In this document: positions 16,436-54,344 of the stretch, piece by piece | How the letters are laid out: each line of letters opens with the position of its first letter | Position numbering within the stretch: position 1 is the first letter of the stretch | NCBI GenBank assembly: GCA_021604765.1 | Contig: BQJP01000001.1 | Span: 262,226 to 326,225 of the forward strand | Direction of reading: 5' to 3' | Length of the DNA stretch: 64,000 bases | From: Thermodesulfobacteriota bacterium | Lineage (GTDB): Bacteria; Desulfobacterota_D; UBA1144; Nemesobacterales; UBA2774 | Made by a program: the position numbers and the translations under genes | Notes under the pieces: model-generated | Databases searched by the model: none | What the model saw: only the letters and a program-made list of their open reading frames with translations | Told to the model about the DNA's origin: nothing

Positions 16436-16480
16436 TACAAAAAAAGGAGCTAATACAGCTTATGTACTAGCTCCCTTTGG
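16436..16480. terminator. GGAGC / GCTCC hairpin terminator flanked by an A-run and a T-run.
   Basis: Downstream of 16511..17398. Confidence 0.45.
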
Positions 16481-16510
16481 TAAATTCTTAATTGAAATAT
16501 TTTTTAGATT

Positions 16511-17398
16511 TTAAGCAGCAACTTGCCTTCTTCTCATAACCATAAATCCAACTACTCCAAGAACACCAGCCATTGCAATCAAACCCCATTCAGATAGGGT
16601 TGGAACTGGTGAAGGTCCGCACGTGTCGAGCCACGCTAGACCGTCAATTTGTTCACCGTCAGCATTATTGGGGCCTATCAGCGTAGATGCGCCTGTATTT
16701 ACATTTAAGCTATACAATTCAATGCTGTTGTTTGCATAGAGAATTTCGTTTCGCTCGTCGTATGCTAAGCCCATGTTGTTTCCGGGTTCTGAGACGCCTG
16801 TGGCGCCAACTAAGCTTGTGTCCCCGGTGGTGGTGGAAATCGTATATAAATTTCCTTCTACATTCAGACCATACAAAATCTCATTTGCATCGTCATATGC
16901 TAATCCGGCGAACTCAAGACCTGAACCTACACCTATTGTCTGAGTATTCCCATTAGGGAACTGCACTGTGAGTATGCTTTCGTTATCTTCATCAGTGGAA
17001 TATAAAATGTTTTCTCCACAGTCGTCAGATGCCAGCCCCCACCAGTTGCTCGATCCGTTCTGATCGCCCAGAAATGTAATAACACCATTTGTTGCTATGG
17101 AACCTATGGTAAATTCATCCGGTATAGGGCTTCCAGGATAATCTTCGAGATCAACGCCGTAAAGAGTTCCCTCTATGTAAGATAGCCCTACTATGCTCGT
17201 CTCTCCATCGGTTGTTACAAATGGTGTTGCCTGGCCGGTGTTGGGACTAATAGTGTACAATACGCCGACATCTGCACTTGAGAGTCCGATCAACCCTTGA
17301 GGGAATCCCTGGGCATTTACTGCGCCTGCTGTTAAGAATAGAGCCAGCATTAACACTAAATTAATTCTGGCAAATAGATATACCAATCTGTTTTGCAT
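16511..17398 (-). CDS. Secreted repeat protein (beta-propeller-like) carrying a C-terminal IPTL-CTERM sorting domain.
   Basis: Signal peptide present. The C-terminus is VPTLSEWGLIAMAGVLGVVGFMVMRRRQVAA. RBS GGAGGA. Confidence 0.6.
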   Translation of the reverse strand: MQNRLVYLFARINLVLMLALFLTAGAVNAQGFPQGLIGLSSADVGVLYTISPNTGQATPFVTTDGETSIVGLSYIEGTLYGVDLEDYPGSPIPDEFTIGSIATNGVITFLGDQNGSSNWWGLASDDCGENILYSTDEDNESILTVQFPNGNTQTIGVGSGLEFAGLAYDDANEILYGLNVEGNLYTISTTTGDTSLVGATGVSEPGNNMGLAYDERNEILYANNSIELYSLNVNTGASTLIGPNNADGEQIDGLAWLDTCGPSPVPTLSEWGLIAMAGVLGVVGFMVMRRRQVAA

Positions 17399-17438
17399 AT
17401 CATCCTCCGAGATATTTGGTTTTCTTTTCTGTTTTTAT

Positions 17439-18143
17439 TTAAGCAGCAACTTGCCTTCTTCTAACAACCATAAATCCAACTATTCCAAGAACACCAGCCA
17501 TTGCGATCAAACCCCATTCAGATAGGGTAGGGACTTCTGTAGGTGCAATTTCAGCCATATAAACAATTCTTTCATAAGACATGGCGTCGGGACCACTATT
17601 TAAGTCACCTTCATTATTTCCAATACTTCCACACCTGTATCCGCCAACATCTCCCTGCAAGTGCCAGCACAACCTTTCGTTGTTTGCACCACTGGAATCA
17701 ACATCGCAATTGTTTTTTTCAACACTGTCTCCAGCTCTTACAAATCCCCATGCAGCTCCCTCTTCATCTCCCATGAGACCGTCATTATTAAAATACCAGC
17801 CCACACCGTTGGCTATGTGGGTAAAATCGTTGTTGTCATTACCCGTATTGAAAGTAACGTCACTTCTTTCACCCTGTGCGAGGAGCATAATTGTCTGACT
17901 TCCAACTGGTTTGCAGGCTAGCATCAATCGCTCTCCTGGGCAATTGGCGAGCACTTCATCAGCATTCATGAATATATTATAAGTGTCGCGGTAGCATTCA
18001 ACCCAACCGCCATTGTTTACTGTTGCTATTGGAACATTTGTCTGTGGCCCAAATGGCAGATACTGAGCTTTAGCTTCAACACTATAAAAAGATGGAATAA
18101 AAACAAGGGATAAAACTATAAAGAAATATCTAAAATTTGTCAT
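17439..18143 (-). CDS. Secreted protein with an IPTL-CTERM tail. Start revised to the ATG at 18143.
   Basis: The C-terminus is VPTLSEWGLIAMAGVLGIVGFMVVRRRQVAA. The signal peptide begins at MTNFRYFFIVLSL. RBS GGAGGA. Confidence 0.55.
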   Translation of the reverse strand: MTNFRYFFIVLSLVFIPSFYSVEAKAQYLPFGPQTNVPIATVNNGGWVECYRDTYNIFMNADEVLANCPGERLMLACKPVGSQTIMLLAQGERSDVTFNTGNDNNDFTHIANGVGWYFNNDGLMGDEEGAAWGFVRAGDSVEKNNCDVDSSGANNERLCWHLQGDVGGYRCGSIGNNEGDLNSGPDAMSYERIVYMAEIAPTEVPTLSEWGLIAMAGVLGIVGFMVVRRRQVAA

Positions 18144-18332
18144 TTTATCATCCTCCATAGACGTATGCCAATTTATATAGATAGTAGTTGATATAACAAT
18201 TTGAGTCAAGGACTAAGTCGGTATTGTTAAGGTAAATCTTTAACTGTCTCACTTGTAGTTATGTAGAGACTACTTTGGAAATTGGGTCAAGAATCATTAT
18301 TATTTAAAAATATATAATGAATCAGGGAGGGA

Positions 18333-19148: not shown

Positions 19149-19170
19149 GATCAGTAATAAGCGGGAATAA

Positions 19171-19626
19171 CTACACTTTCTCTCTAGTTATTGTGCTAAA
19201 GGCAAATTCAATTGTTTCAATTACCATCTCGTTACTTTTTGCTTTGAATGGCGCTGCTTCAAATTTAATCGGCCAGGCATTGGACAATTTCCACCTCATT
19301 GCTGGTTCATGTTCTTGGTTAAGAAGGGTTACGGTTATATCAGTGGTCTTAATAGGTTCGGATAAATCGTTGAGGAATACATTATTAATCCATTCAATTA
19401 TCTTTGGATCGCTTATTATGCCTCTCTTTAGCACAAGGTTGGAGTGTTTAGTTGATATGGGCAGTTTATGAGCATAACTGTTCTCGCCTCCCTCCCGATA
19501 TTCTACAACATCACTTTCACTGTTGAGACCAGTGACCTCTTGAAAGCTGGAGTTGTTGTTTTGAACTCCGTCAAGTCCAAATTCAGCCTTAAAATAAAAC
19601 GCTGCTGGGGGATAATTGTTCGCCAT
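19171..19626 (-). CDS. Contractile tail tube protein homolog (T4 gp19 / eCIS Afp1-Pvc1 type, PF06841-like), orphan.
   Basis: FQEVTGLNSESDVVEYREGGEN..HKLPISTKHSNLVLKRGI..IIEWI matches the remembered tube-protein signature. 151 aa. RBS AAGGGAG. Confidence 0.55.
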   Translation of the reverse strand: MANNYPPAAFYFKAEFGLDGVQNNNSSFQEVTGLNSESDVVEYREGGENSYAHKLPISTKHSNLVLKRGIISDPKIIEWINNVFLNDLSEPIKTTDITVTLLNQEHEPAMRWKLSNAWPIKFEAAPFKAKSNEMVIETIEFAFSTITREKV

Positions 19627-19656
19627 CTATGGACTCCCTTAATACTTTACTACTAT

Positions 19657-19712
19657 AAACAAAAAAGGGAGCCGGCACTATATGTACCAAGCTCCCTTTA
19701 AGTTTTTTAATT
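19657..19712. terminator. GGGAGC-N18-GCTCCC hairpin terminator flanked by A and T runs.
   Basis: Between the IPTL gene and the tube gene. Confidence 0.45.
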
Positions 19713-19729
19713 TTAAAAATTGTCTGAGT

Positions 19730-20104
19730 TTAAGCAGTAGCTCTCTTTCTTCTCATAACCATAAATCCAACTACTCCAAGAACTGCCGCCATGGCAATAA
19801 GACCCCATTCAGAAAGTGTTGGGACTTGACTTGTGAATGCACCACACTGACCTGTTCTTACATCGCAAAATTGATCGTCGAATATGCCAATAAAATCAGC
19901 ATCTCCAGGGATTGCGCATAATACACCCTGGGGTAAGTTACTGCAAGCTAATTCCCCTTCAAGTTCCCACTGGCAACATGCTTGCGAACCGTCTGGTGGT
20001 ATTGGAATGCCTGCATCGGCATCTTTAGGAATAGATATAGATAAAAAACCCGCGATTAGAAAAGCAGCAATAAATGTGGTGATTATAATTTTATTCGCCA
20101 TCTT
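19730..20104 (-). CDS. Small Cys-containing secreted protein with an IPTL-CTERM tail. Start revised to 20104.
   Basis: The C-terminus is VPTLSEWGLIAMAAVLGVVGFMVMRRKRATA. RBS GGAGGA. Confidence 0.55.
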   Translation of the reverse strand, partial: KMANKIIITTFIAAFLIAGFLSISIPKDADAGIPIPPDGSQACCQWELEGELACSNLPQGVLCAIPGDADFIGIFDDQFCDVRTGQCGAFTSQVPTLSEWGLIAMAAVLGVVGFMVMRRKRATA

Positions 20105-20286
20105 GAATCCTCCATTACATAGAATACAAATCATATTATCATATAGACATATGACAAACAACCAGTTCTTTTACTCTATAACTACTTAATAGTAATTCTC
20201 AACATTAAGCAGGCGGAGAAACTATTTTATAAACTACCGAGTTTCCGCTGTAAAACGCTTATGGTATCTGCCTGCTTTATTTTGTA

Positions 20287-21720
20287 TTAACCAACTTTTT
20301 CGACATCTGGAAGTGTCCAGGTTTTATCGAATAGAGCCTTCTCAGGACCATAAAGACGGAAGATCAAAAAGAAGTCCTCGCCAGTTGGAAGCCAATTTGA
20401 TTCCATGCCCTCTGGTGCTTTTGGCCCGAAATATATATCAATTGTCCCATCCTCATTCTGCTTTAGATCTGCTTCCTGAGTAGAACCGATTCCGACCTTG
20501 CTTGCGTTATTAATGAAACCCTTGGTCTTCATGCTATAAACGATTGCTGACCAAAATTGGGCTGCAGGCACATCTTTTGGAACCTTAAGACGATAGAGAG
20601 AAGATCCGTCAAACATTTCTCCTGATTTATCGCGGAGACCCATTAGATAGAAACTCCCTTTACCTAAACGTTTTGGCAAGAATGTAGCCCAGAAGTACAT
20701 CCCTCCTGCCCGCTTGTCCAACAGCAACTCATCTTTTGTTACCATCGGAAACCCTGCTTCAGCTTGTGCTTTAGGGAAATTGGGTGCTTGCCATTTCACA
20801 TCTGACCACCAATTTACAAGTGCTTTGTCAGGTGTGGTGAAGTACTCTTGCATCAAGTCATAACCAAGAGTAAGCGATTGCTCTAAAGCTTTTGTGGTTT
20901 CTTCATTCGGATTAAACTCTGCGCCTTTTTGAATTCCAATAGTTGGGAGCATTCCCATCATTACTAGATCTTTTTCCTGAACGGGTTCTTCGTTAACAAC
21001 AGTGGCTAAGTCCTCAAAGAAGCTCATATCATATTGCGGTAGGGTGTTCCACGTTTTGGGAAATGCATTTATGTAGCGCGTCGGCTCAGGATTCTCCGCC
21101 TCTGATAATGGATAGGCCTTGAGTTTTTTGGCATATGTTACAGCCTCTTCCAGTGTGCCTCCGTTAACTGCTACTGGGCGAAGCCCAACATACAAATTGA
21201 ACGTTTTGGGCCTTTGAACTATATACCCTTCAGGCACCTCTCCCTCATAACCTGGAGGTAAAAACAGATATTTACCACCCTTGCCCTTATCATCCCCTTC
21301 AGGTCCAACATCAGTCACAGGCAATTGCCAGGCATCAATGACGCTTCCAAAATAGATAACCTTTTCTGACGCCGGTGGGACATCTAGTATTACAGGGCCA
21401 TCCTTGGTATTTAACACCGACATTACATATGGGACGTTATTATTCGGAGTTAGAAATCCGTGCCGCGAAACCATGGGCTCTGAGAAATAAATGATATCGT
21501 TGAATGTAAAACCTAGCTGGGTTTCTGCGCTCTTCCGTAAATCCATCATGCTTACAGCTGGCATGCCCCAGATAACAGCCTGTGTGCCGCGCTGGACCGC
21601 TTGTTTATATTCAAGCGATTCCTCCGTTCCGTTCTGTGCCCCAGCTTGTCCTGTCACTGCTATCAGCATTATTGTAAAAACGAAAAGGATAAAACTCTTC
21701 TGTGTGAACTGTTTTAACAT
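20287..21720 (-). CDS. Secreted DUF1254/DUF1214-like protein.
   Basis: Signal peptide present. The call rests on size and a C-terminal FWS..VYS region remembered from the family. Confidence 0.35.
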   Translation of the reverse strand: MLKQFTQKSFILFVFTIMLIAVTGQAGAQNGTEESLEYKQAVQRGTQAVIWGMPAVSMMDLRKSAETQLGFTFNDIIYFSEPMVSRHGFLTPNNNVPYVMSVLNTKDGPVILDVPPASEKVIYFGSVIDAWQLPVTDVGPEGDDKGKGGKYLFLPPGYEGEVPEGYIVQRPKTFNLYVGLRPVAVNGGTLEEAVTYAKKLKAYPLSEAENPEPTRYINAFPKTWNTLPQYDMSFFEDLATVVNEEPVQEKDLVMMGMLPTIGIQKGAEFNPNEETTKALEQSLTLGYDLMQEYFTTPDKALVNWWSDVKWQAPNFPKAQAEAGFPMVTKDELLLDKRAGGMYFWATFLPKRLGKGSFYLMGLRDKSGEMFDGSSLYRLKVPKDVPAAQFWSAIVYSMKTKGFINNASKVGIGSTQEADLKQNEDGTIDIYFGPKAPEGMESNWLPTGEDFFLIFRLYGPEKALFDKTWTLPDVEKVG

Positions 21721-28402: not shown

Positions 28403-29563
28403 TTAATTGAAAATTTTTCTTCTCAACAACCTTCTAATTAATATGAATGCAGGAATGAACAAAAGAAGAGGGGCATAACTACTTGCCGCTCCAGGGCCGA
28501 CTATAGCGCATGAGCTTGAGCCACCACTTGAGTTATTCGGGTCGGGGTTAAAGTTGTCGACATAGATTATTATGTCAAAAGGTTCTGCTCCAAGAGCGCC
28601 CTGGTTCGAATTGCCAAAATCACTTATCACGGAGTTATTACCGGTACTTAGATTAACCCTGTATATCTCCCCCGAACTGTTTGTCCCGCCTGACTCATCT
28701 ACAACAAGAGCATTTTGTGGGTTCTCAAGCACTATTCCCTCTAAGTTATCTCCAAAATTGCTTATTATTTCCCTGTCTCCAGTGTCAGTGTCTACACTGA
28801 ATACAGCATTCAAACCAAAATCAGTAACTAGAGCTGTTCCAGGGTTTCCGATTGCCACGTGTCTTTGATCACTGCCCAAGGGGCCTTGAGAAGGGCTGCC
28901 AAAATCACTAAGCAGGGTTCTCCCACCAGAGCTAATGTCAACACTAAATAGGGCTCCGCGTGAGTTGGTGCCTGCTTCCGGATCAATCACAAGTGCAGTG
29001 TTGGAATTCAAAACTGCTACTCCAAATGGGTCAAATCCCGTTGGGCCTTGTGTGGAATTTCCAAAGTCGCTTACTAAATTCCTGAAACCTGAATTTACAT
29101 TCACACTACTTAAAGCACCGAGTGAGTTTGTGCCTCCGTCTCTTGTTACGACAAGCGCAGTAATAGAATCCTGCATAGCTATGCTTGAGGGATCACTAGT
29201 TAGAAACCCCTCTGTATTGTCGCCAAAATCACTAATGATTGTCCTTGTTCCGTCAGTTAAATTCACACCCAGCATCAAGCCCATTCCATCTGTTCCTGCC
29301 CCCATTTCAAGTACCAGAACGTTTTCGGTATCCCTCTGTGCAAGTCCTACAATTGCAAAACTTGTAGGTCCTTGGGACGGGTTTCCGAAATCGCTTATTA
29401 TAGTTCTCTGCCCGGTGCTCGGGTCCACACTAAAGAGGGCGGCGCTCGCATCTGCTCCGGCTCCAAGTGCTGTAACGAGGGCATCTCCCGAATTGGGCTG
29501 TGCCTGAGCAACGGTGCCTGCGAAAATTAATGTTATAGCTATTGCCGAAATTATTAATCTCAT
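28403..29563 (-). CDS. Secreted repeat protein of about 50 aa x 6 units (ISDFGNxSQGP motif) with a C-terminal TM plus basic tail.
   Basis: Signal peptide. Six DFG(N/D)xxQG repeats. The C-terminus is PLLLFIPAFILIRRLLRRKIFN. Confidence 0.5.
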   Translation of the reverse strand: MRLIISAIAITLIFAGTVAQAQPNSGDALVTALGAGADASAALFSVDPSTGQRTIISDFGNPSQGPTSFAIVGLAQRDTENVLVLEMGAGTDGMGLMLGVNLTDGTRTIISDFGDNTEGFLTSDPSSIAMQDSITALVVTRDGGTNSLGALSSVNVNSGFRNLVSDFGNSTQGPTGFDPFGVAVLNSNTALVIDPEAGTNSRGALFSVDISSGGRTLLSDFGSPSQGPLGSDQRHVAIGNPGTALVTDFGLNAVFSVDTDTGDREIISNFGDNLEGIVLENPQNALVVDESGGTNSSGEIYRVNLSTGNNSVISDFGNSNQGALGAEPFDIIIYVDNFNPDPNNSSGGSSSCAIVGPGAASSYAPLLLFIPAFILIRRLLRRKIFN

Positions 29564-36202: not shown

Positions 36203-36214
36203 GGAGAAAGCAAA

Positions 36215-36772
36215 ATGCAGATAATACTCGCAATAATTATAGGAACTTTATTCGGATTTGTGCTTCACAGGGTTGGAGCCTCAAACCCGCAGAGGATAAT
36301 AGATATGTTAAGGTTGAAAGACTTTCATTTGATGAAAGCTATTCTCTTTGGAATAGCTGTGGCAAGCTCTATACTTTTTGTAGGTATGAGCTTTGGAATT
36401 ATAGAATCATCTCACCTTTCAGTTAAGGCTAGCTATTGGGGAGTAATAATAGGTGGGCTAATTCTTGGACTTGGCTGGGCGATAGGTGCATATTGTCCCG
36501 GCACAGGAGTGGCAGCTCTTGGGGATGGGCGGAAGGATGCTATCTTCTTTGTTCTAGGTGGATTTGTTGGAGCACTAATATATATGCTTGTATTTTCGAG
36601 CGTAAAAAGTTCAGGTTTGCTCGAAAGCATTCTCGGCGGAAAATCTACTCTCGCACTTACGCAGTCATCATATCCTGCTTTAATACATACTATGCCGGGC
36701 ATAGCAGTTGCACTTGTAATTGCAATTATTTTCGGGCTTATTGCTTGGTTACTACCAAAAAGCGCCAGCTAA
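36215..36772 (+). CDS. YeeE/YedE family transporter, second half.
   Basis: GAYCPGTG motif. Adjacent to and co-oriented with the first half. Confidence 0.55.
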   Translation: MQIILAIIIGTLFGFVLHRVGASNPQRIIDMLRLKDFHLMKAILFGIAVASSILFVGMSFGIIESSHLSVKASYWGVIIGGLILGLGWAIGAYCPGTGVAALGDGRKDAIFFVLGGFVGALIYMLVFSSVKSSGLLESILGGKSTLALTQSSYPALIHTMPGIAVALVIAIIFGLIAWLLPKSAS

Positions 36773-36803: not shown

Positions 36804-37295
36804 ATGAATCCAGTTCATTTACATCTTATGTTGAACCACATTCCTCTAGTTGGGGTTGGGTTTGTAATATTATTATTTGTTCTTGCTATATTCTTGAGAA
36901 GTAATCAGCTAATCAATATCTCTTTAATCTTTACAATTTTAGTAGCCCTATGGGCTATTCCTGCTCATCAAACTGGTGAATCTGCGGAAGAGTATGTCAA
37001 AAATTTGCCCGGTTACTCAGATCAATTAGTCCAAGATCATGATATAGCAGCTGATATATCTTTTATTGTCATTGAAATAGTGGGTGTTCTTGCACTGATA
37101 AGCTTGGGTGCACGAAGGTTTTATAAAAAAATTGCCCAGACACTAACGATACTAACACTCGTTGGGCTTATTCTAGGTGGAGTGTTATTAGCCAGGGCCG
37201 CAAATTTAGGTGGCAAGATCCATCATCCTGAATTGCGTCAAGATAATAGTGCTGTAAATTCACCTTCATACAATTCTGAAAATAGGCATGATTAG
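36804..37295 (+). CDS. Membrane protein with about four TM helices, hypothetical.
   Basis: Hydrophobic helices; RBS GGAACAAAATG. Confidence 0.35.
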   Translation: MNPVHLHLMLNHIPLVGVGFVILLFVLAIFLRSNQLINISLIFTILVALWAIPAHQTGESAEEYVKNLPGYSDQLVQDHDIAADISFIVIEIVGVLALISLGARRFYKKIAQTLTILTLVGLILGGVLLARAANLGGKIHHPELRQDNSAVNSPSYNSENRHD

Positions 37296-37320: not shown

Positions 37321-37368
37321 AAAAAAAAGGAGCCAGTACTAATTGTACCAAGCTCCCTTTTGTAAGTT
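37321..37368. terminator. GGAGCC...GCTCCC hairpin flanked by an A-run and a T-run.
   Basis: Downstream of 37392..37739. Confidence 0.45.
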
Positions 37369-37391: not shown

Positions 37392-37739
37392 CTAGGTAGT
37401 TACTTTCTTTCTTCTCATTACTATAAATCCGACTATTCCTAAAACTCCAGCCATAGCAATTAATCCCCATTCTGAAAGAGTAGGTACATTGCTGATTTCA
37501 GAGTTTCCAAGACTAAATCCAGGACAGTTGCCTGTGTCAGTATTACAACTCTCGTTAATGTGAAATTGTATGCTTGTAGGATCTGCTATACAAACTTCTT
37601 GAGCTAAGTTTTGACAAGAACCAATAAACTGACAGCAACCTTCAAATGGAACAGGTTGTGTAAATGCTTTTTCATTCATAGCCATAAACAAAAAGCTGAA
37701 TACTAATAATGAAAGTGTGAAAGTTGATATAGTCCTCAT
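37392..37739 (-). CDS. Small Cys-rich secreted protein with an IPTL-CTERM tail.
   Basis: The C-terminus is VPTLSEWGLIAMAGVLGIVGFIVMRRKKVTT. Confidence 0.55.
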   Translation of the reverse strand: MRTISTFTLSLLVFSFLFMAMNEKAFTQPVPFEGCCQFIGSCQNLAQEVCIADPTSIQFHINESCNTDTGNCPGFSLGNSEISNVPTLSEWGLIAMAGVLGIVGFIVMRRKKVTT

Positions 37740-38896: not shown

Positions 38897-39958
38897 TTAG
38901 AGAATAAACGATCCTACTAAAATTATTACGAATAGAATAATAAAAGCCCCTCTGCACCAATAGTCCAATGTTTTAGCCTCTTTTTCTTTATCCCGGCCTA
39001 CAAGCCTGGCAACTATAGAGGTCTCTACCAGAACCGCAAACACCAAGAACATCGATCCGAACAAAAAGTAATCCATGTGGGTCAGATAGGATATCTTGGG
39101 CAGCAAGTTCCCCAGCAGAAAACGATAGGCTATTAATGTGAGTATTGCCGTAATTGCGATGCTGAATTTGGGTCCGATATGTGAAGGGTCAATAAATAGT
39201 ACGATTAAAGATATAAACACTATCATAATAAGTGGAACGAGGACTTTAATGAAATAAAACCCAACCAGCCTCTCTGCCTCAAACTGGAATACAACACCTG
39301 GCAAAGGGGGCAGTTTTGGTCCGACAATCATGGGCTCCGTAAATGTGTCCCAGCCTGTTATATCCCAATCTGTAACTGTCAGCACCTCGCTCATACCTGA
39401 TTTTTCTTCATTAATGCTGAATTTGATGTGTTGAGCATCTTTTCCTACAGTTACTATTTTGATCTGGAGAAAATGCTTATCAGTTGGGAAATCTTCAAGA
39501 TTCATTGGATACGACATGGTACCCCAGTAACGCTGCACGTAAGATACTGTGCCGTCGGGAAGAACTTGCACCTGGTCGGGAAATGTCTCAAAAAGTTTTT
39601 GCTGATTTAATATCTGTAAGTACGGAGTCCATATGTCCTCTGTTTTCATGATTCGAATATGGTCAATATCTGCTGCAAGACGAGGGTCTTTCCACTCTGC
39701 AATAAGTGCAAAGTTGGCGACAAATGATTGTTGCGCTCCATCTATGCCGTCAATGTCAATTACTATGATGCCGACCTTAATGGGTAGAGCGGTGTCTTGA
39801 TTCCCAGGGCGTACTTCTGCCAAATATTGCTCTTGTAGTTCTTCCTGTGCGTAAGGAGTATCTGCTGCTGAGATCATTAAAAGAAATAAGCAGCATAAAC
39901 TTAATAATATCTTTGAATAATTTTTATAAATTTTCATATTCAATAAACTCTCTGGCAA
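38897..39958 (-). CDS. Prokaryotic pentameric ligand-gated ion channel (Cys-loop receptor family homolog).
   Basis: AEWKDPRL (the W.D..L motif) and IWTPYLQILNQ (the iW.Pd..l.N motif) are present, plus C-terminal TM helices. Paralog of 47410..48447. Confidence 0.65.
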   Translation of the reverse strand: MPESLLNMKIYKNYSKILLSLCCLFLLMISAADTPYAQEELQEQYLAEVRPGNQDTALPIKVGIIVIDIDGIDGAQQSFVANFALIAEWKDPRLAADIDHIRIMKTEDIWTPYLQILNQQKLFETFPDQVQVLPDGTVSYVQRYWGTMSYPMNLEDFPTDKHFLQIKIVTVGKDAQHIKFSINEEKSGMSEVLTVTDWDITGWDTFTEPMIVGPKLPPLPGVVFQFEAERLVGFYFIKVLVPLIMIVFISLIVLFIDPSHIGPKFSIAITAILTLIAYRFLLGNLLPKISYLTHMDYFLFGSMFLVFAVLVETSIVARLVGRDKEKEAKTLDYWCRGAFIILFVIILVGSFIL

Positions 39959-42954: not shown

Positions 42955-43125
42955 TGCTTCCCTCCTTACAGAAAAACTAAAAATTTGCTAAAACGATACC
43001 ATCATCACTAACAACATAGCAAATGATTCTAAATAGTTTTGGTTAAGATTTGATTAAAAAAGGGAACAGACACTGAAATAGCATCTACTCCCTTAGTAAG
43101 TTTTCATTTGATATGTTTAAATATC

Positions 43126-44076
43126 TTAAGCTATAACTTCCCTTCTTCTCATAACCATAAATCCAACTATGCCCAAAATACTTGCCATGGCTATTAGTCC
43201 CCATTCAGATAGTGTAGGGATTTCGCTTGGGTCCGGCGTAAAGGCAATCGCGTCCATGCCCAGCTCTGTCGGACCTATAACCGTCACTACGCCAGTGTTA
43301 ATGTCTAATGTCCCTATGAAGTTTTGTCTGGGAACCATAATTGTCCCGCCGCCACTTGTAATAGATAGATACAACACCCCTGTGGACTGGTCAAAATCCA
43401 TAGCGTTTGCCCTAGGAAGATCGTCGTCTGTAAGAGTTGGGTATGTGGGGTTTGATATGACATTGACATCCCCTGTGAGCTGATTAACCGTGTATAGAAC
43501 ATTAGTGCCCGGAGTATTGAAGTCCCCCACTAAATAATAGAGAGTATCCGTTGGAGAAAATGCCGCGGCATTACCACCCCCCGGCACTTGATTAATAATT
43601 GCTATCAGGGTGCTCAGACCCGTTTGGGTATTAATAGTAGTTAACCAGTTTTGAACCAAGCCCATGGTCTCGGTGCAGGGGCCCACAGGATCAAAGTTGA
43701 AACCAGTGGCAAAAAGTGTGTTATCACTGTTACGAAAAGACATGTCTGTCCAAGCTTCGCAATTATCGGTTGGTCCTATTTCTGTTCCCGCGCCTGAAAT
43801 AGTATTGATCTCGACAAGCACCGTAATGTCGGATCCGTCAGCCCTTTCACATATGGCAAACAAACGCCCTTGTGCATTAAAATCCATACTGCCGCAGCGC
43901 TCAAAACCAATTGGCCCCACAGCATTAGCAGCTCCAGTCTGTGTATTAATTATATGTAATGTGCTTAAGCCATCCCGCCCGATATGTGATATACCGTAAA
44001 GTGTCTGAGCCTGTACAGTGACACCCATCAAAACTAATGCAACTAAAGAAATAAAAGCATATTTAACCATTTTCAT
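43126..44076 (-). CDS. Secreted beta-propeller-like protein with an IPTL-CTERM tail. Start revised to 44076.
   Basis: The C-terminus is IPTLSEWGLIAMASILGIVGFMVMRRREVIA. RBS AAGGAG. Confidence 0.55.
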   Translation of the reverse strand: MKMVKYAFISLVALVLMGVTVQAQTLYGISHIGRDGLSTLHIINTQTGAANAVGPIGFERCGSMDFNAQGRLFAICERADGSDITVLVEINTISGAGTEIGPTDNCEAWTDMSFRNSDNTLFATGFNFDPVGPCTETMGLVQNWLTTINTQTGLSTLIAIINQVPGGGNAAAFSPTDTLYYLVGDFNTPGTNVLYTVNQLTGDVNVISNPTYPTLTDDDLPRANAMDFDQSTGVLYLSITSGGGTIMVPRQNFIGTLDINTGVVTVIGPTELGMDAIAFTPDPSEIPTLSEWGLIAMASILGIVGFMVMRRREVIA

Positions 44077-44289: not shown

Positions 44290-44330
44290 AAAAAGGGAGC
44301 CGGCGTAACTAGAGCCAGACTCCCTTTCAT
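44290..44330. terminator. GGGAGCC...CTCCC hairpin flanked by an A-run and a T-run.
   Basis: Downstream of 44357..44887. Confidence 0.4.
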
Positions 44331-44356: not shown

Positions 44357-44887
44357 TTACGCAGTTACTTTCCTTCTTCTCATAGCCATAAATCCAACTA
44401 TCCCAAGAACTGCAGCCATGGCAATTAGTCCCCACTCAGATAGGGTAGGGACATTGCGTGGTGTAATGCTGTTTTTGAAAGTACAAATACCACTGGTATT
44501 TGGTTCAAGGCAATCCATAAATACACTGGCTTCTTCCTCATTAATTTGTAAAATGAGATTATTCGGATTCCCCTGGGTTATTTCGCAGACTATTTCATCC
44601 AGTTCCCAGCCATCAGGTACTGTTTCCATAAACGTAATTCCGGGCTCTTCAACTATAAAACCGAATACTACTCCACTGCCGTTCGGTATTTCGAAGATAC
44701 CACAACTTTCTCCTCCTTCGAATGTACAAGTAAAATCGAATAGAGTACCATCGTCGGGTATGGCCTCTTTTGTAAATTCTACAAAACAAAAAGGTTGAGC
44801 ATGAGATTTCGTTCCAACCACTAAAGAACCTAAACCAGCTAATATCATAAAAATAATAAGAGTTATTAAACATCGTGTATATTTCAT
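44357..44887 (-). CDS. Secreted Cys-containing protein with an IPTL-CTERM tail. Start revised to 44887.
   Basis: The C-terminus is VPTLSEWGLIAMAAVLGIVGFMAMRRRKVTA. RBS GGAGGAG. Confidence 0.55.
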   Translation of the reverse strand: MKYTRCLITLIIFMILAGLGSLVVGTKSHAQPFCFVEFTKEAIPDDGTLFDFTCTFEGGESCGIFEIPNGSGVVFGFIVEEPGITFMETVPDGWELDEIVCEITQGNPNNLILQINEEEASVFMDCLEPNTSGICTFKNSITPRNVPTLSEWGLIAMAAVLGIVGFMAMRRRKVTA

Positions 44888-45973: not shown

Positions 45974-47341
45974 ATGGAATTCAAAGAGATAATGGCAGGT
46001 GTCTGGAGCGATGTTCAAGAACTTATGCCGGAGCACGTGGAGAGGCTCTCATGGACAAAGGATCAGGTAAGGGAGCACCAGACAAAGAAATTCAGAGAAC
46101 TACTCAAAACAGCTAAAGAGAAAACGAAATATTACAGTGAATTACTAGCCGATGTTGATATAGATAATTTCACACTTGAAGATCTGCACATACTCCCACC
46201 AAATGACAAAACGTTTCATATGGACAGATGGGACGATTTTGTGGCAGCTCCTGGCATAACGTATGAGGTTGTTGAAAATCACCTCGAAAAGCTAAGAAAG
46301 GGTGAGATAGATGATCCTTTTTATAATGATGAATATCTATTTGTTTCCACTGGTGGCTCAACAGGCAAAAGGGGTGTGTTTCTCTGGGATATGGAGTTCA
46401 TTTGCCAGATAATCTGCTACACTTACCGCTACATCCTTCATGACGAGATAAAAAACTCCTATGAAGGGCCTTTCAAACTGGCCACGGTTGAGGCCCCCAC
46501 GCTTCTACACGGAAGCCCATATGTATTTCCAAGTAAATTTGTAGCCGACATGGATCTTCTTAGTCTTGCTTCAACCGATCCTATTCCCGAAGTGTGTGAG
46601 AAGTTAAATGAATATCAACCGACTCACCTGATGGCATATGCTTCATCTGTAGGAGAATTAGCTGCTGCTCAACTTAAAGGAATGTTGGACATCCATCCTC
46701 GTTGGGTGTGCACCAATTCTGGCCCTCAGGATGAGGATATTCGGAACCGTACCATTAAGGCATGGGGAGTAAAAGCAAGCAATTCCTGGGGCTGTTGTGA
46801 GATAGGGCAGATGGCTATAGAAACGGAGTTTAGCCCTGGGATGGTTATATGCGCAGACGGTGCGATATTTGAGGTAGTAGATAAAAACAACCAGCCAGTG
46901 GATAATGTAGAAGACGCGGCCAAAGTACTAGCGACTAATTTAACCAACTTCTCTATGCCAATGATTCGCTATGAAGTTGATGATATTGTTGAGATTGGAG
47001 CGCCACTGCCTGAATATCCAGCGTACGGCACCGTTAAGCGGATTCTAGGAAAAGCTACTTTCTGGTTCCAGTATGGAGATATTAAAGTTCATCCGACTTC
47101 TTACAGTGATATATTAGAGGTAGAGAAAGAGGTTGAGGAATTTCAGATTGTCCAGACTGAAGAGGGTGCCCATATAAAGCTTGTCTGCAATGGCGAGCCT
47201 AATATTGCAGAGATGAAAGACACTATCTTAAAAAATCTAAATAAATACGGTTTGCATGATCCAATAATTAACTTCGAAGTAGTAGATTCCCTGCCTCGCC
47301 ACCCCGAAACAGGCAAAATCAAGCGCTTTATCCCACTTTAG
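45974..47341 (+). CDS. Adenylate-forming enzyme of the phenylacetate-CoA ligase / CapK / CoF390-synthetase type (PaaK-like).
   Basis: P-loop-like STGGSTGKRG. Size is about 455 aa. The family call is tentative. Confidence 0.4.
   Translation: MEFKEIMAGVWSDVQELMPEHVERLSWTKDQVREHQTKKFRELLKTAKEKTKYYSELLADVDIDNFTLEDLHILPPNDKTFHMDRWDDFVAAPGITYEVVENHLEKLRKGEIDDPFYNDEYLFVSTGGSTGKRGVFLWDMEFICQIICYTYRYILHDEIKNSYEGPFKLATVEAPTLLHGSPYVFPSKFVADMDLLSLASTDPIPEVCEKLNEYQPTHLMAYASSVGELAAAQLKGMLDIHPRWVCTNSGPQDEDIRNRTIKAWGVKASNSWGCCEIGQMAIETEFSPGMVICADGAIFEVVDKNNQPVDNVEDAAKVLATNLTNFSMPMIRYEVDDIVEIGAPLPEYPAYGTVKRILGKATFWFQYGDIKVHPTSYSDILEVEKEVEEFQIVQTEEGAHIKLVCNGEPNIAEMKDTILKNLNKYGLHDPIINFEVVDSLPRHPETGKIKRFIPL
47285..47338 (+). 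repeat. Left copy of a 54-bp direct repeat, the functional 3' end of the PaaK-like gene.
   Basis: 89% identical to 48506..48559. Confidence 0.7.
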
Positions 47342-47409: not shown

Positions 47410-48447
47410 ATGTTTAGAATACTTTTGATCCGAATCTCATTAGCTTTTCTATGCTTTTTCCTATTCTCTCCTATCATCACACATGCGTATGAGCCGAAAC
47501 CCACGAGTGTTATAAAAAGTGGTAATACTGGGGGAAAACCGAAACAGGTTCAAGTTGGAATATACGTGATAAACATTGAAGAGGTGAACAGTGCGAAACA
47601 AAGTTATCAAGCAACAATTGCCTTAGATATGAAATGGAACGACCCCACTCTGATATGCGGTCCGTCGGAAGATAAAGGCATAATCCGTAAGTTTAACCTT
47701 AAAGATATTTGGAACCCGAGCATGATTATAGCCAATCAGGAGCATATTGAAAAACAGTTCACGTATCAAGCCTGGGTAGATTGTTTAGGCAATGTAGAAT
47801 ACACGGAGATTGTGTTCGGCGACTTTTTGACAATTGCAAATATTAAGGAATTTCCATTTGACCAGCGCCCTTTGACAATTGAATTAGTTTCTACGGAATT
47901 CGATACCAGTGAATTGCAATTTGTTAATGACAAATCGATCACTGGGCGTGATTCAGATCTCTCCGTTGCAGACTGGTATATTGATAAAGTACCCGTTGCC
48001 GAGTCGACGGCTTATCATTTCAAACCCGGAAATCGTGAGCTTTCATCGTTTGTTTATACACTCTCAGCTAAACGTAATTCTAGTTTCTTTGTGTGGAAGA
48101 TAATTATCCCGCTTATTCTGATTGTAATAATGTCGTGGGCAGTATTCTGGATTCCCCCGAGTCAGTTAGGGCCTCAAATCGGCTTATCTATGACCTCGAT
48201 GCTCACACTGATTGCTTATCGTTTTGCCATAGGGCATGTCGTACCTGACGTTTCCTACCTTACCCGCTTTGACAAATTTGTATTTGGTTCCACATTGCTG
48301 GTATTTCTGGCTTTTGCAGAGGCCATAGTAAGTGGGTCTCTAAGTTACGAGAATAATGATAAGCTGGCTAAAACAATAGACTTTTATTCACGCTTTATAT
48401 TTCCGGCAATATTCATATGTATATTGATCTATTCGTTGTTTCTATAA
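47410..48447 (+). CDS. Prokaryotic pentameric ligand-gated ion channel; second paralog.
   Basis: KWNDPTL and IWNPSMIIANQ motifs. C-terminal TM helices. A candidate promoter TTGACA-N17-TAGTGT lies upstream. Confidence 0.65.
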   Translation: MFRILLIRISLAFLCFFLFSPIITHAYEPKPTSVIKSGNTGGKPKQVQVGIYVINIEEVNSAKQSYQATIALDMKWNDPTLICGPSEDKGIIRKFNLKDIWNPSMIIANQEHIEKQFTYQAWVDCLGNVEYTEIVFGDFLTIANIKEFPFDQRPLTIELVSTEFDTSELQFVNDKSITGRDSDLSVADWYIDKVPVAESTAYHFKPGNRELSSFVYTLSAKRNSSFFVWKIIIPLILIVIMSWAVFWIPPSQLGPQIGLSMTSMLTLIAYRFAIGHVVPDVSYLTRFDKFVFGSTLLVFLAFAEAIVSGSLSYENNDKLAKTIDFYSRFIFPAIFICILIYSLFL

Positions 48448-49446: not shown

Positions 49447-49492
49447 AAAAAGCTCTGACCTAGTTAGAAATGACTGAGTCAGGGCTTTTTTT
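49447..49492. terminator. Bidirectional intrinsic terminator (GCTCTGAC..GTCAGGGC with A and T runs).
   Basis: Sits between convergent genes. Confidence 0.55.
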
Positions 49493-49494
49493 TA

Positions 49495-49890: not shown

Positions 49891-49911
49891 TTTTTTCTTC
49901 CTATCGAAACC

Positions 49912-50310: not shown

Positions 50311-50488
50311 TTTGCTGCCTCCTTTTAGTAGATAGAATTCGCTCTCATAAAATTACTAAGAAGTTGCATTTTAAGTCTAGCTTAAGGGTAGGGGATAATA
50401 AAGGAAATTAACTTGAATTTAATATTTTATGAGAAAAAAGGGACAAACCGCCTGGTATGCCCCTTTGTCATTTTGTTATTTGAAAAAC

Positions 50489-51568
50489 TTATATCTCTAA
50501 TTTAGCCTGACGACGTCTTAAGAAAACAACTGCGACACCAAGTAACATTACTACAGTAGCAATGAGCCCATACTCCGAAAGTGTTGGAACTTCCGCAACA
50601 AGCTGTTCACCCCTAACTACCAGGGCGGCAAATTGATTCGTCTCATCAGCTATGAATCCAATAACATCAATATCACCGTTGAACTGGTCTATTGTTACAA
50701 GGAAATTACCGTTTTCTATGCCGTTGGTAGTTGCTTCAGGTCCTATCCCATTACCTAAATGAGCTAGGACAGCGAAGAAGTCACCTATGCCATCAAAGTC
50801 TTTGGACCCTATAATATTATCCCCTATAATAAATTCGGGTGGGTATATGAGATTGTCTATGAATGTAGCGTTTCCGGTGGTTTGGTTTAGGATGTTGATT
50901 GCTCCGGGGGTGTTTCGATTGTCTGTGCACTGAAAAAGGGTGTCCATACCGTTAAAACCAATTGCGCTCCATGTATCGTCAGATCCTGTCGGCCCGAGAA
51001 CTGTCAAATTACCGGTTTGGGTATTAATAATGGCCAGTGAGTTTGCGGATACTGTATTGGTAGTGTTCTCAGCTTCCAATGCGTTACCCTCACCATTTAA
51101 ATGAGCGAAGAGAGTACCGTCGGATCTGAATGAAATATCAGAGACAAAATCTCCTCGTCCTAATTCCAGTGATCCTATTTCAGTCGCTTGTCCAGTATTT
51201 GGGTCTAATATTAACAAATATGAGTTGAATAACCCATTTCGTGTAAGCAGTATTGGATCTACGCCGTTTTCTTCGATTTTCTCACATACCGCGAAAAATT
51301 CTCCTGTATCAGGATGTATGTCCAGACCCGTACATCTGGTATAACCGTTTATAGTTCCTATTTCAGTTGGGGTGCCTGTATTAAGATTAATCGAATACAA
51401 TACTGAATCTAAAAATGGTGATAACCGTGGTTCGACTACTTCTTCTGGCGGCAGTTCCTTTATTTGAGATTCAGTGCCAATACCATATATTTTCAGCTGT
51501 GCCATTGCCGGTAATGCCGATACAACAAATAAAGTTAAGACTAAAAATAATCTTACTAAACTTTTCAT
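50489..51568 (-). CDS. Secreted beta-propeller-like protein with a variant IPTL-CTERM tail. Start revised to 51568.
   Basis: The C-terminus is VPTLSEYGLIATVVMLLGVAVVFLRRRQAKLEI. RBS GGAGGG. Confidence 0.5.
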   Translation of the reverse strand: MKSLVRLFLVLTLFVVSALPAMAQLKIYGIGTESQIKELPPEEVVEPRLSPFLDSVLYSINLNTGTPTEIGTINGYTRCTGLDIHPDTGEFFAVCEKIEENGVDPILLTRNGLFNSYLLILDPNTGQATEIGSLELGRGDFVSDISFRSDGTLFAHLNGEGNALEAENTTNTVSANSLAIINTQTGNLTVLGPTGSDDTWSAIGFNGMDTLFQCTDNRNTPGAINILNQTTGNATFIDNLIYPPEFIIGDNIIGSKDFDGIGDFFAVLAHLGNGIGPEATTNGIENGNFLVTIDQFNGDIDVIGFIADETNQFAALVVRGEQLVAEVPTLSEYGLIATVVMLLGVAVVFLRRRQAKLEI

Positions 51569-51835
51569 ATATCCCTCCAAAAAAATGTTGTTTAATTTTA
51601 CAAACGTTTGTTTTTTGTGTTTCTAAAGATTGTTTTAATTTCGATTCAGTTAGAAGGGTTGAGACTAAAGACTAACGTTGCAAGGTTACTACTCTTTATC
51701 TCTGACCGCCATCTTCTTATCTAAGTTCGATATTATCATATCGAAAATGAGAATGCAATAAATATGTATATGTCTATATTGCAATATGCATCTTGGGAAT
51801 TGATTTGTTCTTGAACGGCCTAACAAGGGATTTGT

Positions 51836-52600
51836 TTACGAGGCATTCCAGCCGCCATCTACAGGAAGCAAGTGACCTGTAATAAATTCTGAGTTGTCAT
51901 CGCACAGAAATAATATTGAATGAGCGACTTCTTTCGCTGTTGCAATTCTGCCTAGTGGGTGGAGGCTCTTCATAAACTCAATAGCATCGTCCCTGTCTTC
52001 TGCTCTTTCAAGATAACCCTCTGTTACAAGAGGGGTCTCAACAAATCCAGGGCAGACAGCGTTCACTCTTATATGATTGGGCGCGTATTCAATAGCCATA
52101 CATCTTGTAAGCTGGGCAACAGCTCCTTTAGATGCGGCATAAGCAGCTACTCCTGAAAACCCCTTGAGTCCTATTACTGAAGAGCTATTTACAATTGCTC
52201 CGCTCCTTTGCTCCATCATGTGCGGGAGTACGTATTTGGACATCAGCCACATGCCCCTCACATTTACATTGAAAGTCTTATCCCACTCCAGGCTTGATAT
52301 TTCATGAGTAGCGCCGGGAAGAAGTATCCCCGCGTTGTTGATTAGAATGTCTATGTGTCCATATTTTTCCACTACATATTCTACTATTGCTTTACAGCAG
52401 TCTTCATCTGATATGTCATTAACAAGATAGTCTATTTCGGGGCCTAGTTTTCTGGATTCTTTTTGCACTTGCCTGAGCTTATCAACTCTTCTTCCGATTA
52501 TGACTACGTTTGCGCCTTCCTCGGTAAATAGTAGCGCTGTTTCTCTGCCTATCCCTGTTCCGCCGCCGGTTACAACTACAGTTTTATCCTTAAATCTCAT
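51836..52600 (-). CDS. SDR family short-chain dehydrogenase/reductase.
   Basis: Cofactor motif TGGGTGIG, the NNAG motif, and the catalytic YAASK. Confidence 0.85.
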   Translation of the reverse strand: MRFKDKTVVVTGGGTGIGRETALLFTEEGANVVIIGRRVDKLRQVQKESRKLGPEIDYLVNDISDEDCCKAIVEYVVEKYGHIDILINNAGILLPGATHEISSLEWDKTFNVNVRGMWLMSKYVLPHMMEQRSGAIVNSSSVIGLKGFSGVAAYAASKGAVAQLTRCMAIEYAPNHIRVNAVCPGFVETPLVTEGYLERAEDRDDAIEFMKSLHPLGRIATAKEVAHSILFLCDDNSEFITGHLLPVDGGWNAS

Positions 52601-52880
52601 TGAGCTGGATCTCCATTTGGATATGTGAATATATCAAATTCTTGAATTTGTGCTTACCTTAAATCCTATAATATACAGTTTATTTGAGAACTACAATTAA
52701 CTATTCCTCCAATAAATTTTGCTTCAAATTTCTGACAGCAAAATTTTTGACATATACTAGATATATAGATGCTAGTAATATTGTAAAGGTTTCATAAGTT
52801 CTTATCGTTGGCTTTTTAAAAACAATGCTTCTATAAAATAGATTATATCTAGTTTCTATAAAGAAGAGATAGAGGAATAT

Positions 52881-53261
52881 TTATTTATTCTTGCGTGTCC
52901 ATGTGCCATCAAGTACTTTGACTCGCTCCTGACATGTGTCGGAAATTGATGAAAAAGTTAAATTCTTTTTGGTAACTGTGTATGAATAAGTTCCGGGATT
53001 GAAACAAGTATCGTCTTCAAAGGTAATATTATCCTTTGAAAGGCTGTATCTGCCATTAGTATCAGTATGGTCCTTAGATGAGGATTTAAATATGAAGAGC
53101 GAGCTATCTTTTAACTCAAGAGTTCCTAATTCCTCACCCTCGGTTTGGGTTGAATATTTAATCCAAGTCCCATCGGGTTCTGTTGGGTGCTGTTCTTTGC
53201 ATCCGAGAGTTAGCAGAAGTCCCAGTACCAAAACACAGTGAAGCGCTTTTTGTGAAATCAT
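52881..53261 (-). CDS. Lipoprotein, hypothetical.
   Basis: Lipobox LTLGC. Confidence 0.4.
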   Translation of the reverse strand: MISQKALHCVLVLGLLLTLGCKEQHPTEPDGTWIKYSTQTEGEELGTLELKDSSLFIFKSSSKDHTDTNGRYSLSKDNITFEDDTCFNPGTYSYTVTKKNLTFSSISDTCQERVKVLDGTWTRKNK

Positions 53262-53420
53262 TAGAACATTCTAAGCCATTAGCCTGTATTCCTCAAGTTT
53301 TAAAATTTGGTGCGCATTCTGAAAGCCAATCAATTGTCCAGAAGTCATAGTTTGCATTCTGAGCAGATCTGAGAGTAAAGAACCAAAGCCCTCTGTTTCT
53401 TTAAAAGCAAAGTTGTTCTT

Positions 53421-54344
53421 TTAAGCTGATAGTTTTTTCCTTCTGATGACTAGTAAGCCTGCAATTCCCAATATTGCCGCAAGGGTTATGAGTCCCCATT
53501 GTGAAATGGTCGGTATTGGATTGGGCAAAGGAGGGGCAAAAGGTCCCGGGTTGGCAGAACAGGAAAACCCATCGATTGATGCTGTAAGCCCCTCAGGCAG
53601 CGTCTTGCCGATTGATGTTGCCTCTCCAGTTTGAGTGTTTAGTTGGTAGAAGATTCCCTCACCTGTTCTGTCAGAACCATAAACATTTCCACGTGCATCA
53701 GCGTACATAGAGCCAAAAACTCCATTTGCCTCAAGTCCGGTAAGCCCTCTTTCTTCAAATGTGCCGGTTTCGATATCTATAGCTATTAGGGTTTGAGCAG
53801 GTACCTGAGATGCTCCAATATTTTGAGTGACTGCATAGAACAATCCATCTACAGGATTGTATGCAATATCTGATATACCAAAATTTGATCCAGCTATATT
53901 TATGGAGTTTACAACTTCTACTGTGTCAACATCTATAGCATGTATAATATTAAATACATTACTAGTGCCTCCAGCATTTACATATAATAAGTCGTCCCCG
54001 CCAAAATCTCCGACAGGATAAAGAGGCACGCTTGAAAGGCCTGCTATCGTTCCAAGCTCTTCAACACTACCGTTTGCAGATACTCGTACTAGTTGTAAAT
54101 CATCTCTTGTAAATGTCACACCGTAAGCGAAATTGTCTTTTTGTCTATATCCAGTCGCATTGATACGTCTTCCTGCATTGTTTGGTTCTATTTCAAATAT
54201 ATTTCTCTCTATATCATATTTGAGCAGTTGTCCTTCAGAGCTAAAGACTTGATAAAAAAGTCTGCTGCATTCAAAGGGCCGTTGTCCAAAAGCGTTTGTA
54301 GATAGAGTTGCAAAAATGGCAAAGAGTATGATTTTTAATAACAT
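53421..54344 (-). CDS. Secreted beta-propeller-like protein with an IPTL-CTERM-like tail.
   Basis: The C-terminus is IPTISQWGLITLAAILGIAGLLVIRRKKLSA. RBS GGAGGGG. Confidence 0.5.
   Translation of the reverse strand: MLLKIILFAIFATLSTNAFGQRPFECSRLFYQVFSSEGQLLKYDIERNIFEIEPNNAGRRINATGYRQKDNFAYGVTFTRDDLQLVRVSANGSVEELGTIAGLSSVPLYPVGDFGGDDLLYVNAGGTSNVFNIIHAIDVDTVEVVNSINIAGSNFGISDIAYNPVDGLFYAVTQNIGASQVPAQTLIAIDIETGTFEERGLTGLEANGVFGSMYADARGNVYGSDRTGEGIFYQLNTQTGEATSIGKTLPEGLTASIDGFSCSANPGPFAPPLPNPIPTISQWGLITLAAILGIAGLLVIRRKKLSA

Follow-up and report, generated by a model that had tools for sequence, protein, structure and literature searches.

IPTL-CTERM tails on eight predicted secreted proteins of a Dadabacteria-like genome and their putative shared 3′ module

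Eight tailed genes and their protein bodies

The window analyzed here, a 64-kb stretch of contig BQJP01000001.1 (assembly GCA_021604765.1) with a G+C content of 41%, carries eight genes whose products end in a tail of the IPTL-CTERM type. Its host is placed in Thermodesulfobacteriota by NCBI, and the relatives of the source metagenome-assembled genome (MAG), DHS20C13, are labelled Candidatus Dadabacteria. A scan of the window in six frames with the pattern PT[LIVM]x[EQD][WYF]G gave exactly eight matches, all on the minus strand and each 30–32 residues ahead of a stop codon. They fell in the eight genes for which an earlier note on this DNA had proposed a shared tail (g16511, g17439, g19730, g37392, g43126, g44357, g50489, and g53421). 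The C-terminal layout was tripartite in all eight, with the motif, 16–17 hydrophobic residues, RR[RK], and then 4–6 residues before the stop. The signature of the window tails is [VI]PTLSEWG, followed by a Gly-rich transmembrane (TM) helix, LIAMAGVLGIVGFMVM, and then by the Arg cluster and four residues. All eight products also had an N-terminal signal peptide, read directly from the sequences as a run of basic residues, a hydrophobic segment, and a site resembling AxA (such as ..AVNAQG, ..VEAKAQ, and ..VQAQT).

The bodies between signal peptide and tail comprised four classes: six-bladed propellers (four genes), small 6-Cys proteins (two), an Ig-like domain (one), and a conserved family of unknown fold (one). 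The first reading of this DNA had called the bodies unrelated, which was mostly right, but the four propellers are related among themselves, as are the two small 6-Cys proteins. Its count of four beta-propeller-like bodies also stood, whereas its three small Cys-rich proteins became two paralogues, with g44357 as a separate Ig-like family.

Among the propellers, g16511 (16511–17398; tail codons 16511–16606) has a DUF4394 propeller-like body behind its signal peptide (39 bits for DUF4394; tail scores of 35.4 bits with TIGR04174 and 39.3 bits with PF18203), and tailed orthologues were found in JAJCZS, CAWGRW, and CAVWAZ MAGs. The product of g43126 (43126–44076, open reading frame (ORF) to 44100; tail 43126–43221, TIGR04174 39 bits) is a Kelch-like beta-propeller, for which the AlphaFold model gave six blades with a pLDDT of 88.8 and a Foldseek match to Kelch domains at E 1e-9. 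Its clear paralogue (E 4e-15) is g50489 (50489–51571), which has a divergent IPTL-like tail of 33 residues (50489–50590) with Y replacing W. The fourth, g53421 (53421–54344), encodes a DUF6923 repeat protein (propeller-like; PF21959 96 bits) with a divergent tail at 53421–53516 (TIGR04174 32.2 bits). Both g16511 and g53421 were weakly related to the g43126/g50489 pair and to each other, and all four touched DUF4394/DUF6923.

The two small 6-Cys secreted proteins, paralogous at E 2e-5, are encoded by g19730 (19730–20101, ORF to 20161; tail 19730–19825; TIGR04174 37.8 bits), which has the pattern CC..C..C..C..C and positional orthologues in CALOCI locus L075, and by g37392 (37392–37739; tail 37392–37487; TIGR04174 34.3 bits). 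The body of g44357 (44357–44887, ORF to 44965; tail 44357–44452; TIGR04174 38.5 bits) has ~140 residues with six Cys and a weak prealbumin/SpaA-like match (PF24514 SpaA_4, 22.3 bits, under the cut-off of 27.3), and 15 homologues of it were found in related loci. The remaining gene, g17439 (17439–18143, ORF to 18209, likely start Met at 18143; tail 17439–17534), belongs to a conserved Dadabacteria family. Because of strong Shine-Dalgarno sequences, internal Met starts are likely in five ORFs, at 18143 (g17439), 20101 (g19730), 44076 (g43126), 44887 (g44357), and 51571 (g50489). By 100% identity, g17439 is DHS20C13_03030 and g43126 is DHS20C13_03340.

Curated models assigned the tails to a described class. 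Seven of the eight scored 32–39 bits against TIGR04174 (IPTL_CTERM, NCBIfam; cut-off 20.5 bits), and g50489 fell just under it with 18.0 bits. The Pfam model PF18203 (cut-off 20.8 bits) agreed, giving 31–41 bits for the passing tails and 18.5 bits for g50489. The long tail pattern of the earlier note fitted six tails; g50489 (GLIATVVMLLGVAVVFLRRRQAKLEI) and g53421 (GLITLAAILGIAGLLVIRRKKLSA) diverged from it. Homologues are already named “IPTL-CTERM sorting domain-containing protein” or “exosortase sorting signal-containing protein” by NCBI and JGI. The tail occurs on multiple unrelated proteins, with four body classes in the window and a further paralogue, DHS20C13_16370, on another contig. 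No PEP motif was present in the eight tails, and neither the generic PEP-CTERM model (TIGR02595) nor PF07589 was reported for any of them; the sole row with a PEP-CTERM name was NF038120 (PEP_CTERM_QFxxD) on g37392, at E 0.062 and 13.2 bits against a cut-off of 80. The tails matched positions 24–65 of the midcut-by-XrtH model (NF033207) at 19–34 bits, where the model needs at least 45 bits. The layout of that family, with the motif in the middle of a protein of ~175 residues, was not seen: the motif was C-terminal in all eight, and no protein with an internal motif was found in the window or the related loci. These results support the proposal that the eight tails belong to the known IPTL-CTERM class of sorting signals.

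The gene at 15305–16153 (minus strand) encodes another secreted protein, with a Cys/Asp-rich centre (thrombospondin-type-3-like by eye) and a C-terminal half of RTX calcium-binding repeats. Its N-terminus, MLKFILALILALGLMAPKSHG/ATAIEYGLIAI, resembles a Flp-prepilin cleavage motif and echoes the SE[WY]GLIA found in IPTL tails. A GGGGGC-stem terminator of its own lies 33 nt past the stop.

Distribution and conservation of the tail

Related loci (numbered with L) were collected by scanning one genome per species for DNA encoding SEWGLIAMA, which gave at least 111 stretches; among the matches listed, almost all lay in Dadabacteria/Thermodesulfobacteriota MAGs. The scan loci, L001, and the window together held at least 164 tails in 113 loci from ~25 related MAGs, and 127 of the 164 were exactly 31 residues long. 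In the 3.1-Mb relative OZ244197.1, sampling of L001 and 17 scan loci, 18 in all, gave at least 28 tails. Every body family of the window had tailed orthologues in other MAGs, with 35–65% identity.

Conservation extended to positions outside the scan pattern, namely G14 (76%), L16 (89%), G17 (96%), G20 (95%), and the R25–R27 cluster (R25 within 89–96%), and one face of the helix reads GxxxxxGxxGxxG. That a Gly-zipper helix is kept so uniform suggests that recognition of the signal takes place within the membrane. Behind RR[RK], most tails carried exactly four residues, usually ending in Ala (83% of 127; -QVAA, -RATA, -KVTA); in the window this concerns g16511, g17439, g19730, g43126, g44357, and g53421. 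We speculate that this fixed cytoplasmic C-terminus, which a membrane anchor would not need, might mark the cleaved stub for degradation.

The tails could instead be plain C-terminal anchors in the inner membrane, never cleaved and served by no dedicated sorting enzyme. As plain anchors would predict, a search of the window and of the surroundings of ~160 tail genes in related MAGs yielded no sorting enzyme, although exosortase genes usually lie away from the genes of most of their substrates (Haft, 2023, bioRxiv 10.1101/2023.06.07.544157). A plain anchor needs hydrophobicity only, whereas P2, T3, and W7–G8 were 98–100% conserved and the spacing, the 31-residue length, and the final Ala were fixed; of these features, W7 and G8 were prescribed by the pattern used in the scan, unlike P2, T3, the tail length, and the final Ala. 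In addition, the tails pass a curated sorting-signal model, and in other lineages PEP-CTERM is found on the same bodies. We consider uncleaved anchors very unlikely.

In several Dadabacteria MAGs, IPTL genes are adjoined by PMT_2 membrane glycosyltransferases of the ArnT/protein-O-mannosyltransferase-like type (L025:852–2450, L079:959–2437, L080:3598–5082 and 6333–7541). These enzymes are a possible glycosylation partner for the IPTL surface proteins.

Terminators and exchange of the 3′ ends

The same GGGAGC-stem terminator had been said to follow most of the genes. A hairpin with a GGGAG[CT] stem and a T-run, of the form AAAGGGAG[CT]...[GA]CTCC(C)TTTTTT (folding z −3.2 to −4.9), was indeed found after five of the eight, beginning 32–36 nt past the stop. 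On the minus strand, these terminators lie at 16439–16475 (g16511; an intrinsic terminator with a GGGAGC stem, 36 nt past the stop, z −3.6), 19661–19696 (g19730; GGGAGC, 33–34 nt, z −4.9), 37321–37357 (g37392; GGGAGC, 35 nt, z −4.1), 43056–43092 (g43126; GGGAGT, 33–34 nt), and 44290–44324 (g44357; GGGAGT...GCTCCC, 32–33 nt). The one behind g37392 is bidirectional and also follows the convergent gene at 36804–37295. A different terminator with a GGGGCA stem begins 25 nt past the stop of g50489, also on the minus strand (50434–50463, calculated from this offset and the 24-nt hairpin length). No terminator was found after g17439 or g53421; in g17439 this is because g16511 begins 40 nt downstream, and the two genes are probably co-transcribed.

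Strong terminators were rare in the window (12 among 75 genes, one of them the reverse reading of the g37392 hairpin), and the GGGAG stem followed five of eight IPTL genes vs. one of 67 others (p = 2e-5). Beyond what had been claimed, the hairpin was tied to IPTL genes across the lineage: in related loci it stood after 66 of 142 IPTL genes (46%) vs. 15 of 789 other ORFs (2%), most commonly as GGGAGC-TTCG-GCTCCC with a UUCG tetraloop. The spacer from stop to hairpin is A-rich, ~33 nt long, and loosely conserved (AATCTAAAAACAyTACAATTTAAA...AAA). Spacers from genes with unrelated bodies matched each other at up to 0.86, compared with a maximum of 0.78 among 2000 shuffled controls. These matches and the terminator association indicate that tail DNA, 3′ untranslated region (3′UTR), and terminator, ~165 nt in all, form one homologous 3′ module, as judged from sequence. 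A search for the module as an Rfam family returned no matching family. That its three parts evolve as an exchangeable unit is a modest new observation.

The nucleotide identities between tails were close to those first noted (about 95 and 80–85%). Over 93 nt, the tails of g16511 and g17439 were identical at 87 positions (94%), and those of g19730, g43126, and g44357 showed 77–84% identity. In the g16511/g17439 pair the flanks were dissimilar (23 of 60 positions upstream and 24 of 60 downstream), so that identity ended exactly at the tail borders, and it exceeded the identity of each tail to that of its own orthologue (0.82 and 0.87). The excess of identical codons was significant for every pair in the group of g16511, g17439, g19730, g43126, and g44357 (p ≤ 0.02; for example, 19 of 22 observed vs. 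6.3 expected). Within this group, identical residues used identical codons at a fraction of ~0.66 vs. ~0.29 predicted from the codon usage of the window. For g37392 the excess was marginal.

One clear replacement event is apparent from the comparison of g37392 with its orthologue at L004:2278–2625. The bodies were 75–78% identical, with identical codons at 45 of 54 conserved residues, whereas the tails showed 59% identity and only 4 of 16 identical codons (Fisher p = 2.7e-5 vs. the body), and the 3′UTRs were unrelated. The whole 3′ end was apparently replaced in one lineage of this pair.

Tails were also more alike within genomes than between them. The mean identity was 0.712 within vs. 0.681 between genomes, a difference reached by none of 2000 permutations, and the nearest neighbour of a tail came from the same genome in 35% of cases vs. 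9% expected. Genome-specific tail variants were found on unrelated bodies in JAJCZS (“LLGIVGFMVVRRRQ”), in CALOCI (“VLGVVGFMVMRRKRATA”), and in the genome of the window (“VLG[VI]VGFMV[MV]RRRQVAA”). Tandem CALOCI paralogues had diverged bodies and identical tail peptides, and the same propeller body bears PEP-CTERM tails in other phyla, as in the g43126 homologues P0146, P0148, and P0167 with VPEP/IPEP tails. Taken together, the confinement of g16511/g17439 identity to the tail, the replaced tail of the g37392/L004 pair, and the closeness of tails within genomes support a DNA-level modular exchange of the tail between unrelated genes, in agreement with the gene conversion or modular exchange that had been suggested. 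The likeness of the module between such genes would then have three sources: common ancestry, a very strong constraint on the peptide, and, on occasion, non-allelic gene conversion or replacement of the 3′ end.

Selection acting on codon choice or on the mRNA (through RNA structure, translational pausing at AGA-AGA-AGG, or a preference for AT-rich codons) might produce similar tails with neither conversion nor exchange. Codon preferences in the tail are indeed lineage-wide, with AGA at Arg26 in 94% vs. 28% in the background and GGA at Gly17 in 65% vs. 27%, and the G+C content at third codon positions (GC3) of the tails lies below that of other genes in nearly every genome; we read these position-specific preferences as probably inherited rather than selected. 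However, tail GC3 correlates with that of the genome (r = 0.76), and the tail sequence thus drifts along with its genome. The tail RNAs showed no unusual folding (z −1.25 to +0.99), and conserved RNA structure in the tail-coding region was rejected on these values. Such selection also leaves unexplained why g37392 and L004 kept their bodies while synonymous sites of the tail and the 3′UTR were scrambled, why homology runs into the non-coding 3′UTR, and why there are genome-specific variants. We therefore regard it as quite unlikely.

Sorting enzyme, neighbouring genes and interpretation

No exosortase, sortase, rhomboid, or CPBP protease was found when every multi-TM open frame of the window was scanned, in line with the lack of a sorting enzyme reported before. 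There was also no candidate among the clustered neighbours of IPTL genes or in the contexts of six homologues, and the only rhomboid found was in a Gammaproteobacteria MAG (L102). A plasmid tblastn seeking XrtH gave one match, with no XrtH within 20 kb. The earlier note had called the processing system elsewhere or unknown; no enzyme lies in the window, but the system is not wholly unknown, given that the NCBIfam model “midcut-by-XrtH” matches the tails. The expected enzyme is exosortase H (XrtH), to which NCBIfam assigns this role with a model named “exosortase H, IPTLxxWG-CTERM-specific”; the link to exosortase H also comes from the name of the midcut model. The gene at 36804–37295 (plus strand) encodes a 4-TM protein of 163 residues and adjoins an IPTL gene here as well as in another genome (L023:2863–3375). 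As a sorting enzyme it was rejected, since it lacks Cys and matched no family.

The signal may be real and yet be processed in this lineage by something other than exosortase H, be it a rhomboid, a CPBP/myxosortase-like protease, or an exosortase of another subfamily. Next to generic IPTL-CTERM, the present tail stands out for its uniformity and its Gly-zipper-like character, the XrtH link is drawn from NCBIfam model names only, and a second, Cys-containing C-terminal signal occurs in the same genomes, so that more than one sorting system is likely. On the other hand, the motif fits the IPTLxxWG signature that underlies the curated models, positions 33–65 of the midcut-by-XrtH model are matched at 19–34 bits, and nothing found points to a different enzyme, which makes one rather unlikely.

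The Cys-containing signal belongs to a ninth secreted repeat protein (28403–29563, minus strand; DHS20C13_03140, also by 100% identity), a GloVer/NHL-like propeller with a tripartite tail, ..SSGGSSSCAIVGPGAASSYAPLLLFIPAFILIRRLLRRKIFN. The pattern GGxGC[AST][ILS], 8–14 residues, LLIPxF, RRL.. recurs in other Dadabacteria MAGs (L013:6842–7573, L026:7118–7909, L064:3–1508, P0247, and P0342). This tail scored below threshold with MYXO-CTERM (17.2 vs. 20 bits) and JDVT-CTERM (15.4 vs. 27 bits), and from its sequence it might represent a Cys-type sorting signal not yet described. Elsewhere, homologous bodies have IPTL-CTERM or RTX ends.

Several other genes of the window are of separate interest. 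Two encode prokaryotic pentameric ligand-gated ion channels (38897–39958, minus strand, and 47410–48447, plus strand). The product of the latter was 92% identical to that of JAJCZS L007:194–1231, with an identical-codon fraction of 0.84, whereas its neighbour at 45974–47341 reached only 75% and 0.53. A DUF1254/DUF1214 protein (20287–21720, minus strand) and the corresponding protein of OZ244197.1, a distant relative, shared 90% identity and an identical-codon fraction of 0.73, where other pairs of window and OZ244197.1 showed 30–85% identity and codon fractions of 0.32–0.44; this suggests a recent transfer or unusual constraint. Positions 1–10200 (plus strand) hold a podophage-like remnant with a Gp80 fibre protein, a 1233-residue protein, a GH19 lysin-like gene, and small TM proteins, and an orphan T4 gp19-type tail-tube gene (19171–19626, minus strand) lies between IPTL genes. 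Near g37392 there is a Sulf_transp/DUF6691 (YeeE/YedE-like) gene pair (35636–36772, plus strand), and a similar pair lies near the IPTL propeller P0138 in an Acidobacteriota MAG (L116:4738–5729).

With described IPTL-CTERM tails (TIGR04174/PF18203), those of the window share IPTLSEWG, the TM helix, the Arg cluster at the C-terminal end, and the presence of many copies on unrelated secreted proteins. That model was seeded from Proteobacteria, whereas the host here is a member of the Dadabacteria, and the present tails are far more uniform (31 residues, GxxxxxGxxGxxG helix, terminal Ala) and come with a conserved 3′UTR and terminator. The PEP-CTERM/exosortase A (XrtA) system has the same tripartite design and directs many substrates to one enzyme, but the motif here is IPTLxxWG. 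Sigma-54 promoters upstream of the IPTL genes were considered and rejected; no PrsK/PrsR-type promoter and no exopolysaccharide locus was found upstream. The best-studied member of the superfamily, and the model for the mechanism proposed here, is PGF-CTERM/archaeosortase A (ArtA) with the S-layer glycoprotein of Haloferax volcanii, although it is archaeal and has another motif. Haft (2023, bioRxiv 10.1101/2023.06.07.544157) has described the tripartite design and the Cys-Arg-His exosortase family, as well as the processing by ArtA, with removal of the C-terminal helix and attachment of a lipid. In the literature searched, the only experimentally localised IPTL-CTERM protein was mela_00855 of Methylomirabilis lanthanidiphila, which has a signal peptide and an IPTL-CTERM at residues 285–312 and is located in the S-layer (PMC8671808). 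Its body is unrelated to those of the window, and tail cleavage was not demonstrated there either. Families that NCBIfam names “choice-of-anchor” likewise join one body to alternative anchors by lineage (IPTL, PEP-CTERM, RTX, or a Cys-containing tail), but here the exchange is also visible in DNA between close relatives, with the 3′UTR included.

The reading that we favour, with a probability of about 0.72, is that the eight genes encode Sec-exported envelope or surface proteins with IPTL-CTERM sorting signals, processed by an exosortase-family enzyme encoded elsewhere, and that they share a 3′ module. Class membership, signal peptides, body folds, and lineage-wide distribution come from the present data, and the processing steps are drawn by analogy. 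After Sec export, the C-terminal helix would retain the protein in the inner membrane with the Arg cluster in the cytoplasm. A polytopic Cys-Arg-His enzyme of the exosortase family would then cut at the motif, and the mature protein would be handed to a surface anchor, as in PEP-CTERM/exosortase and PGF-CTERM/archaeosortase.

Several results count against this reading or narrow it. Among the multi-TM ORFs of the 113 related loci there was no exosortase, sortase, or CPBP protease, although with ~0.9 Mb over ~25 genomes this absence says little. The GGGAGC hairpin was also found after some genes of non-IPTL secreted proteins, and it may simply be the lineage's favoured strong terminator of highly expressed genes. 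The tail similarity had been described as more than the peptide requires, which held for the group of five tails and marginally for g37392, but the tails of g50489 and g53421 showed no nucleotide-level excess over the codon-usage expectation. Between the window and CALOCI and JAJCZS, its closest relatives, the orthologues of ordinary genes already had identical-codon fractions of 0.41–0.60, and the conversion signal beyond g16511/g17439 and g37392/L004 is therefore modest. Tails in related MAGs were 82–94% identical to those of the window, at least as high as within the window, and much of the nucleotide likeness is thus due to shared descent and strong constraint, not only to local conversion. 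Finally, the expansion is lineage-wide, which leaves no special status for this window or genome.

A more far-reaching idea is tentative and on balance doubtful: a Dadabacteria 3′ cassette of ~165 nt, made of the IPTL tail, the ~33-nt 3′UTR, and the GGGAGC(UUCG)GCUCCC terminator, might have been copied repeatedly, through gene conversion or replacement of 3′ ends, onto unrelated surface-protein genes, which would keep the dozens of signals in each genome matched to one enzyme, perhaps not the XrtH assigned in Proteobacteria.

The IPTL signal itself was already known, and the finding is in this sense correct but largely ordinary, with no new kind of system behind it. It marks IPTL-CTERM as heavily used in the Dadabacteria, a lineage that is widespread and uncultured, and it yields a catalogue of their likely surface proteins, among them an Ig-like domain, small Cys-rich proteins, and propellers. 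The tails also provide a small, clean example of the concerted evolution of a protein-sorting signal.

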